This document shows positions 59,305 through 60,075 of a stretch of 64,000 nt of DNA, in pieces. Position 1 is the first letter of the stretch. Every line of letters begins with the position of its first letter. The notes beneath the pieces are model-generated. The model was not told the origin of the DNA. It saw nothing but the letters and a program-made list of their open reading frames with translations, and did no database searches. The stretch is from the NCBI RefSeq assembly GCF_041248615.1, contig NZ_CP158426.1; one strand, given 5' to 3'. Position numbers and translations under genes: made by a program. The stretch comes from Escherichia coli (GTDB lineage Bacteria; Pseudomonadota; Gammaproteobacteria; Enterobacterales; Enterobacteriaceae).

Positions 59305-60075
59305 GCTAGTTACCGATTCAGACTCGAGGTTTATTTAAGAATCCATACCTGCTCGGCCTCCAGCACAGAAAACCGACACTCAAGCAGACTCGGCAGGCTG
59401 GTATGCTCCTGGCGGGCATTTTTGTACTGATATTTTCCGGGCTGAGCACTTCTCAGGTTCAGATGCTTCATCAGCCGCCTGGCACGACAACTGCTCATCG
59501 GGATACCATTTTGAATCAGCATATCTGCCAGAGCACGCGCACCTGCGGAACCCCGACTCTGGTTCCAGACCCGGACTGTTTCGCTATACAATTTGATTCG
59601 CGCCGGATCAATCGTATTGAGCCGATTCTGCCAGTGCCGGAACTGCTGCAATGAGCATCCAGAGCAGCGCAAAGACTGACAATCGTGTGTCGCCGCTCAG
59701 TCTGGTAACTATCGTAAACCGTTCAGTGGGAAGGATATCAAGAGCACTGTAGCTTTTTAATATCGTTTTTTGTTCCTCCAGGCGACGAACCTGCTTTTCC
59801 AGTTCATGAATACGTTGCTACTCTGATGTGAGTGGTGATGCAGAAGACGTGGTATCCTGACGTTCCCGCCTGAGCTGACGTACCCATGCCCCCCAGTGTA
59901 TAGGAACCGACATTCATAGCTTTGGCGGCATCTGCAACTGTGTAGTTCTGGTCAACAACCAGTTGAGCGGATTCGCGTTTAAACTCTGCGCTAAAATTTC
60001 TTTTTTTCATTAGGGCACCAGTCTTGTTCTGAGGTGAGCATATCACCTCTGTTCAGGTGACCAAATTCAGTGTGC
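59305..60075 (-). pseudogene. IS3-family (IS911-like) element: left end, orfA, orfB 5' part; ends in a short group II intron 5' fragment
   Basis: orf[22 protein letters not shown]...; inverted duplicate of 25031-25650 including the intron junction. Confidence 0.6.

Follow-up and report, generated by a model that had tools for sequence, protein, structure and literature searches.

An IS/intron remnant in inverted pair and the two orientations of a 33.7-kb island segment in Escherichia coli

In a virulence island of the Escherichia coli chromosome, two fragments of an insertion sequence (IS), each running across a junction into a group II intron, face each other in opposite orientation. This raises the question of how two copies of one such junction came to lie on the same island, and whether the DNA between them has turned over in nature. 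We studied them in a window of 64,000 nt (contig NZ_CP158426.1, assembly GCF_041248615.1), which over long stretches is 99.9 to 100% identical to strains such as SFE8 and XDL. We consider it very probable that the repeated sequence, here called R, is what two truncated descendants of one dead composite element still share, and that recombination within R flips the intervening segment.

The repeat pair and its flanks

Alignment with MAFFT and a BLAST comparison of the window with itself returned a single inverted pair of this kind, 604 bp long, 100% identical and free of gaps, with its copies spaced 33.7 kb apart on one replicon.

25027-25630, plus strand: R copy A, 580 bp of a dead IS3-family element followed by 24 nt of intron remnant (25607-25630)
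59319-59922, minus strand: R copy B, the exact reverse complement of copy A
25631-59318, no strand assigned: the 33.7-kb segment found in both orientations

A perfect match of 604 bp cannot have arisen by chance. The initial annotation had proposed an inverted segmental duplication (25031-25650 versus 59305-59920) that includes an IS/intron junction and yields identical 113-aa translations. The inverted identical pair, the inclusion of the junction and the translations are all borne out, with the two open reading frames at 25277-25618 (plus strand) and 59331-59672 (minus strand), and the copies remain collinear across the junction at 25606/25607 and for 24 nt past it. The exact ends proposed were off by 4 to 20 nt, and a segmental duplication is not demonstrated, the copies being better read as differently truncated descendants of one element. 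Beyond R there is a 12-nt indel, after which about 15 nt align again with 13/15 identity (25643-25657 versus 59318-59304). The direct repeats cited in the same annotation are present as well, at 117-728 and 21526-22137 (92%) and at 1630-2011 and 58509-58890 (98.7%) in the self-BLAST.

The island reads, from the left, iucABCD-iutA, sitABCD and sodC, then copy A; between the copies lie nested IS and intron debris, ibrAB, more IS debris, an amiC paralogue, iha, remnants of ICE genes and an SgcJ/EcaC-family gene; to the right of copy B stands a PhoX-family gene. The island also holds two IS256-family copies in direct orientation (14889-16203 and 57028-58341; a 1340-bp alignment including the edges, 99.5% identity); SFE8 has neither, and none of the related genomes compared has the second. 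These are recent strain-specific insertions. The roughly 41 kb between them takes in copy A and all of the invertible interior, and the two copies could mediate its deletion. Just past the second of them lies an imperfect palindrome of about 140 bp (58280-58422, 82% self-complementary), with related pieces of 60 to 85 bp at 914-997 and 16141-16204.

Copy A and copy B differ on both flanks, copy A having the structure a-R-c and copy B, read on the minus strand, d-R-b.

24688-25026, plus strand: flank a, sodC-linked non-IS sequence in the place of the IS 5' end of copy A
25631-25696, plus strand: flank c, where intron copy 1 continues (E.c.I4-like positions 53-118), ending at an IS3-family element at 25697
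59923-60082, minus strand: flank d, the IS 5' end, with the left terminal inverted repeat from 60082 and the orfA start codon
59179-59318, minus strand: IS part of flank b, about 12 to 15 nt of intron, the last 35 or so orfB codons and the right terminal repeat ending at 59179
58891-59178, minus strand: non-IS part of flank b, 288 bp, co-inherited with a-R on plasmids and in an APEC O2-211-type chromosomal locus

As a whole, copy B (60082-59179) is a 904-bp internally deleted IS that appears to keep both ends, with left and right terminal repeats matching at 17/40 positions and with no target-site duplication (GAC versus GTG on its two sides). Copy A has neither end and both copies are pseudogenes, so the pair does not have the make-up of a composite transposon. 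The intron stretch in flank b comprises positions 65 to about 78 and follows a 12-nt deletion, and flank a is inherited along with R and b, both on plasmids and at other sites of the chromosome. The limits of R are an independent old 5' truncation on the left and the 12-nt deletion on the right, and do not mark the ends of a 604-bp duplication event. A sub-threshold Rfam match to isrC, a Salmonella sRNA family (24966-25048, plus strand; 30.8 bits against a gathering threshold of 39, E = 0.0015), crosses the boundary between a and R and hints at the same truncated-IS junction in Salmonella.

Both orientations among complete genomes

We searched 5,426 complete E. coli genomes for the two junctions present in the window, using query flanks of 327 to 419 bp, and for the two chimeric junctions, using 800 bp on each side.

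a-R-c (window): 51 genomes of 5,426
d-R-b (window): 64 genomes of 5,426
a-R-b (chimeric): 85 genomes of 5,426, 7 of them at full length, and plasmids too
d-R-c (chimeric): 3 genomes of 5,426

Since each junction is a unique event and all four flank combinations exist, at least one exchange must have taken place inside R (the four-gamete argument). The reciprocal junctions a-R-b and d-R-c occur together, with the 33.7-kb interior flipped, in EC6563, HCM-24C-3 and A3176, three public assemblies from human urine in China, chicken meat in Vietnam and chicken in Korea. Both chimeric 2204-nt queries have a 100% match in EC6563. In all three genomes, synteny maps give the order as sodC-a-R-b, then the inverted interior, then c'-R'-d'-PhoX, with the sodC and PhoX flanks unchanged. 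XDL, in the window orientation, and A3176, in the inverted one, have the same flanks and the same internal 3-kb deletion, and essentially only the flip sets them apart. The exchange at R is exactly reciprocal, with 0 bases gained or lost and no new target duplication. Taken from assembled sequence, these comparisons point to homologous recombination within R as having inverted the segment in nature, in line with the expectation of the initial annotation that such inverted repeats can drive inversion. General homologous recombination is the best-supported mechanism, and we infer that it depends on RecA. In the island copies of 7 genomes R is invariant, with 0 SNPs; crossover points and gene-conversion tracts therefore have no variant by which to be mapped, and gene conversion looks the same as recent common origin.

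The identity of the copies, and the invariance of R in all island genomes examined, would also be expected if exactly these 604 bp had recently been duplicated in inverted orientation and had stayed put since. We think this unlikely, because each copy has sequence that the other is without (the IS 5' end in B, more of the intron in A), because homology restarts past the 12-nt indel, and because a and b are found contiguous with R, at about 1% divergence, on plasmids and at other loci. This last observation makes the ends of R old truncation points rather than duplication breakpoints: contiguous a-R-b of this kind is common on ColV-like plasmids (118 plasmid places) and forms part of the APEC O2-211-type locus, sodC-hyp-a-R-b-LysR. 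Moreover, a related island in which R occupies one site only, the second being empty but otherwise the same, is absent, and the four flank combinations tell against a pair that has been static.

That the inverted isomers are assembly errors across the 604-bp repeat, with no inversion behind them, seems to us more doubtful still. Hybrid assemblies can indeed mis-join repeats, and the isomers are known from the assembled sequence of three genomes; yet these are three independent complete assemblies that agree, each with clean reciprocal junctions, and their left flanks differ (dptFGH-sodC versus sit-sodC). Furthermore, 604 bp is far shorter than long reads, and contiguous a-R-b occurs independently in 78 other chromosomal loci and on plasmids. 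Least plausible among the ways of making the flip is a site-specific invertase or a transposase acting by intramolecular transposition. The island is packed with IS elements, some of them intact (IS100, IS21-family, IS630), but neither the RefSeq annotation within and next to the segment nor the open reading frames near the repeats show a gene for an invertase or a site-specific recombinase. Moreover, copy A is missing the two IS ends, the reading frames of the IS are disrupted, and the exchange is reciprocal base for base, with no new target duplication.

Recombination within R thus stands as the preferred account of the flip, and its polarity is ambiguous because the evidence conflicts. On one hand, the linkage of a, R and b in unrelated contexts suggests that this linkage is the older. 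On the other hand, a derived deletion of 29212-32240 is common to the three inverted genomes and to some of those in the window orientation, which makes the inverted ones look like later flips. Together these observations fit more than one inversion over time. The deletion itself, present in EC6563, HCM-24C-3, A3176 and XDL, removes 3 kb comprising ibrA and the 5' part of ibrB; it is flush with the left end of an IS3-family element and looks IS-adjacent.

The region had also been called recombinationally unstable, a description that suits LS45 and XH992, which have rearranged further. Both show a third arrangement, d-R-b-L ... L'-b'-R'-a', in which the inverted repeat is extended to 1411 bp (59922-58512), window positions 25631-36193 are missing, and 58512 now abuts 36194 at a new junction, where the two share ACGACGGATGAAAAGTG. 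Repair primed from R and copying the flank of the partner may have produced it. XH992 has three R copies and two sodC copies. In some genomes with the window arrangement, a third copy in the form a-R-b, about 99.3% identical, lies elsewhere on the chromosome, for instance in PK8276 (NZ_CP080146.1, 3309346-3311176, about 1.6 Mb away) and EF5-18-41 (NZ_CP063492.1, 1114569-1116399, about 3.8 Mb away). Such extra a-R-b copies, chromosomal (including APEC O2-211) and on many ColV-like plasmids, are further partners for ectopic recombination.

The IS/intron junction and the descent of the two copies

The IS portion of R extends over 580 bp, 25027-25606, and holds a degenerate 3' part of orfA and, ending with the QVW codon at 25606, the N-terminal half of orfB. 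We place its end there because the homology of IS relatives ends there: the alignment of R with a relative in MB06234, 87% identical, stops at 25606, and that with a second, more distant relative ends at query position 580, which is again window 25606. The MB06234 relative reads ...FAVPEPDRVW CEDITYIW..., and the translation of the window is conserved to ...QVW and diverges after it. An intron start at 25584 (GTGCTGG...) was considered and rejected, since the IS relatives align through 25606 in both DNA and protein; 25584-25606 is IS coding sequence, matching FAVPEPDRVW of a relative.

The initial annotation had spoken of an IS911-like orfB fragment. The IS origin is upheld, and the IS911 label holds only for the 174 bp that start with the left terminal inverted repeat (60082), which are 93% identical to K-12 IS911B; IS911 similarity is then lost, 13 bp into R, and the rest of R is ISEc31-like. 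By sequence similarity the IS of R is a frameshifted IS3-family element with an IS911-like 5' end and an ISEc31-like remainder. Its orfA remnant is frameshifted and gives a sub-threshold Pfam match to HTH_Tnp_1 (22.9 bits against a cut-off of 24.1), its 113-aa orfB remnant contains HTH_21, and Pfam finds no rve (DDE catalytic) domain in the orfB fragment of R. RefSeq annotates the IS in both copies as a pseudogene; neither orfA nor orfB is intact, and copy B has no target-site duplication.

The repeat does span an IS/intron junction, as had been proposed, with the IS ending at 25606 and the intron taking over at 25607.

25606-25607, plus strand: junction J1, IS joined to intron position 29, a 47-bp deletion at the microhomology GGTATGG/GGCATGG

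In a closely related IS of IAI39, the native junction of the intron E.c.I4 reads GGTATGG, then TGCGGAGATATTACGTATA, then GTGTGCCC..., the intron beginning GTGTG.... In the window, GGTATGG is followed at once by ATTCTTAAAT..., the IS being joined straight to intron position 29, and we take the ATTCTTAAATAAACCTCGAGTCT that stands after the QVW codon as the intron side of J1. Missing are 19 nt of the 5' exon and intron positions 1-28, 47 bp in all, and with them the 5' splice site; the native homing site would lie 19 nt further downstream, E.c.I4 homology begins at the overlapping ATGG, and the native 5' end (GUGYG) at the homing site is absent. J1 is accordingly a microhomology deletion scar and not a retrohoming junction. 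Because this scar is unique, both copies of R descend from one ancestor, which agrees with the earlier proposal of a single junction that was duplicated after its formation. A search of 100,044 species-representative genomes for exact matches to the J1 scar, which diverged copies would escape, gave 0 hits. The homing site of E.c.I4 is a single fixed position in transposase genes of the IS3 family, the targets being those of IS629, IS911, ISEc16 and ISEc31 (PMC3522654), and although independent retrohoming of the same intron into two copies of the same IS would for that reason give identical native junctions, we find it hardly credible here, J1 excluding it as their source by its want of GUGYG, its loss of 19 nt of exon and 28 nt of intron, and its join within microhomology.

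The last 24 nt of R and the adjoining 25631-25696 together match a group II intron. Compared with our E.c.I4 reference (E.c.I4-10 of strain IAI39, coordinates from Table S3 of PMC3522654), window 25597-25696 is 90% identical to positions 19-118. The stretch inside R corresponds to E.c.I4-like positions 29-52, so that the repeat does contain intron sequence, as the initial annotation held, over 24 nt instead of the first 45 or so. The intron sequences of this part of the window are as follows.

25631-25696, plus strand: intron copy 1, E.c.I4-like positions 53-118 (flank c)
29223-29341, plus strand: intron copy 1, E.c.I4 positions 345-464, 84% identity
30398-30494, plus strand: intron copy 1, E.c.I4 positions 666-763, 86% identity
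26179-28448, minus strand: intron copy 2, group II intron E.c.I4, 2270 nt, ltrA with an internal stop
25697-29211, minus strand: IS3-family element hosting copy 2, inserted in intron copy 1, with terminal repeats TGATCCTACCC... and TGATCTTACCC...

By their alignments, the pieces of copy 1 belong to an older, diverged E.c.I4-like intron, on the plus strand and in the sense of the IS, broken up by later IS insertions. Copy 2 is 98.6% identical to E.c.I4-10 of IAI39 over 2270 nt, its exons rejoin in frame (ITY/LRTDEGW), it matches Rfam RF00029 with 64 bits (domains V and VI), and it encodes RVT_1 and GIIM domains. The remnant by R is without domains V/VI and without the reverse transcriptase/maturase ORF, both of which occur only in the separate copy 2. 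The two introns account for an 87-bp inverted repeat of 91% identity (25610-25696 versus 28331-28417), both arms being positions 32-118 of E.c.I4-type introns, one in the old remnant beside R and the other, in opposite orientation, in the near-intact E.c.I4 of the IS3-family element. Region 25027-30494 is nested four deep: E.c.I4 in an IS3-family element in an older E.c.I4-like intron in the IS911/ISEc31-like IS. No target duplication of 3 bp flanks the IS3-family insertion (25697-29211), next to which the host intron lacks about 225 nt (positions 119-344). A weak Rfam match to the ALIL pseudoknot (28775-28875, minus strand; 21 bits, E = 0.034) coincides with the orfA/orfB overlap of this element, where a programmed frameshift signal is expected.

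Put together, these observations suggest the following history, in which the order of the truncations is inferred. An IS3-family element, IS911-like at its 5' end and ISEc31-like elsewhere, would have been invaded at the usual orfB homing site by an E.c.I4-like intron, and a 47-bp microhomology deletion would then have removed the 5' splice site and made the unique scar J1. One descendant lineage would have lost the IS 5' end and gained flank a in place of d; in the other, most of the intron and the central part of the IS would have gone, leaving flank b in place of c. The two J1 copies could have reached one island by transposition in trans, by separate acquisition or by duplication. Once they were there, homologous recombination, presumably of the RecA type, in the 604 identical bases would invert the interior, swapping c and b between the copies and leaving a and d where they are, so that the window would be the a-R-c/d-R-b isomer and other strains the a-R-b/d-R-c isomer.

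Consequences of the inversion and comparison with known systems

With its breakpoints in dead DNA, the flip leaves every gene whole: no reading frame is interrupted, and the a-sodC and d-PhoX linkages stay as they were. The inversion is an ordinary structural polymorphism of an IS-rich island, and probably neutral; we see no basis for a regulatory role. There is a slim chance that frequent flipping within a strain alters expression of iha, ibrAB or the amiC paralogue, through replication orientation or read-through, or that the 904-bp d-R-b is mobilised in trans by IS911 or ISEc31 transposases; if frequent flipping were true, the segment would be a generator of heterogeneity. Our literature search on the island (ibrA, iha, sodC) returned nothing relevant, and this instance of a well-known kind of feature appears to be undescribed in the literature searched. 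The result leaves general understanding as it was, and it is useful for assembling, typing and comparing the aerobactin/sit/iha island in avian and extraintestinal pathogenic E. coli, in which differences in order and orientation represent genuine isomers made by recombination, as opposed to separate acquisitions, and need not be errors. It also offers a worked example of how a deletion scar at an IS/intron junction marks common descent, and of how four flank combinations prove exchange within a repeat.

Switches such as fimS, Hin and the shufflons combine short repeats with a dedicated recombinase and reorient a promoter or a coding segment. The segment described here resembles them in lying between inverted repeats and occurring in two orientations, and differs from them in that short repeats, a dedicated recombinase and the reorientation of a promoter or coding sequence are none of them seen.

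A second point of comparison is E.c.I4 as described by Leclercq and Cordaux in 2012 (PMC3522654). Copy 2 of the window is E.c.I4 itself in an IS3-family orfB, and the remnant in R, 84 to 91% identical to it, stands in the sense direction in an ISEc31/IS911-like orfB next to the known homing site. Unlike E.c.I4, this remnant has no 5' splice site, domains V/VI or reverse transcriptase gene, and its junction is a deletion scar.

A close parallel is with the inversions of E. coli and Shigella that arise by homologous recombination between inverted IS or prophage copies, examples being studies on structural variation in O157:H7 (PMC8743559), on Shigella rearrangements (bioRxiv 10.1101/2020.06.12.147751) and on long repeats and rearrangements (PMC9297083). 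The present case differs in that the copies of R are non-functional fragments, one of them lacking both IS ends, and in that the segment is only 33.7 kb, lies inside one island and implies no phenotype. It shares with such inversions long identical inverted repeats of mobile DNA, the presence of both orientations in natural isolates, and a reciprocal, exact exchange.
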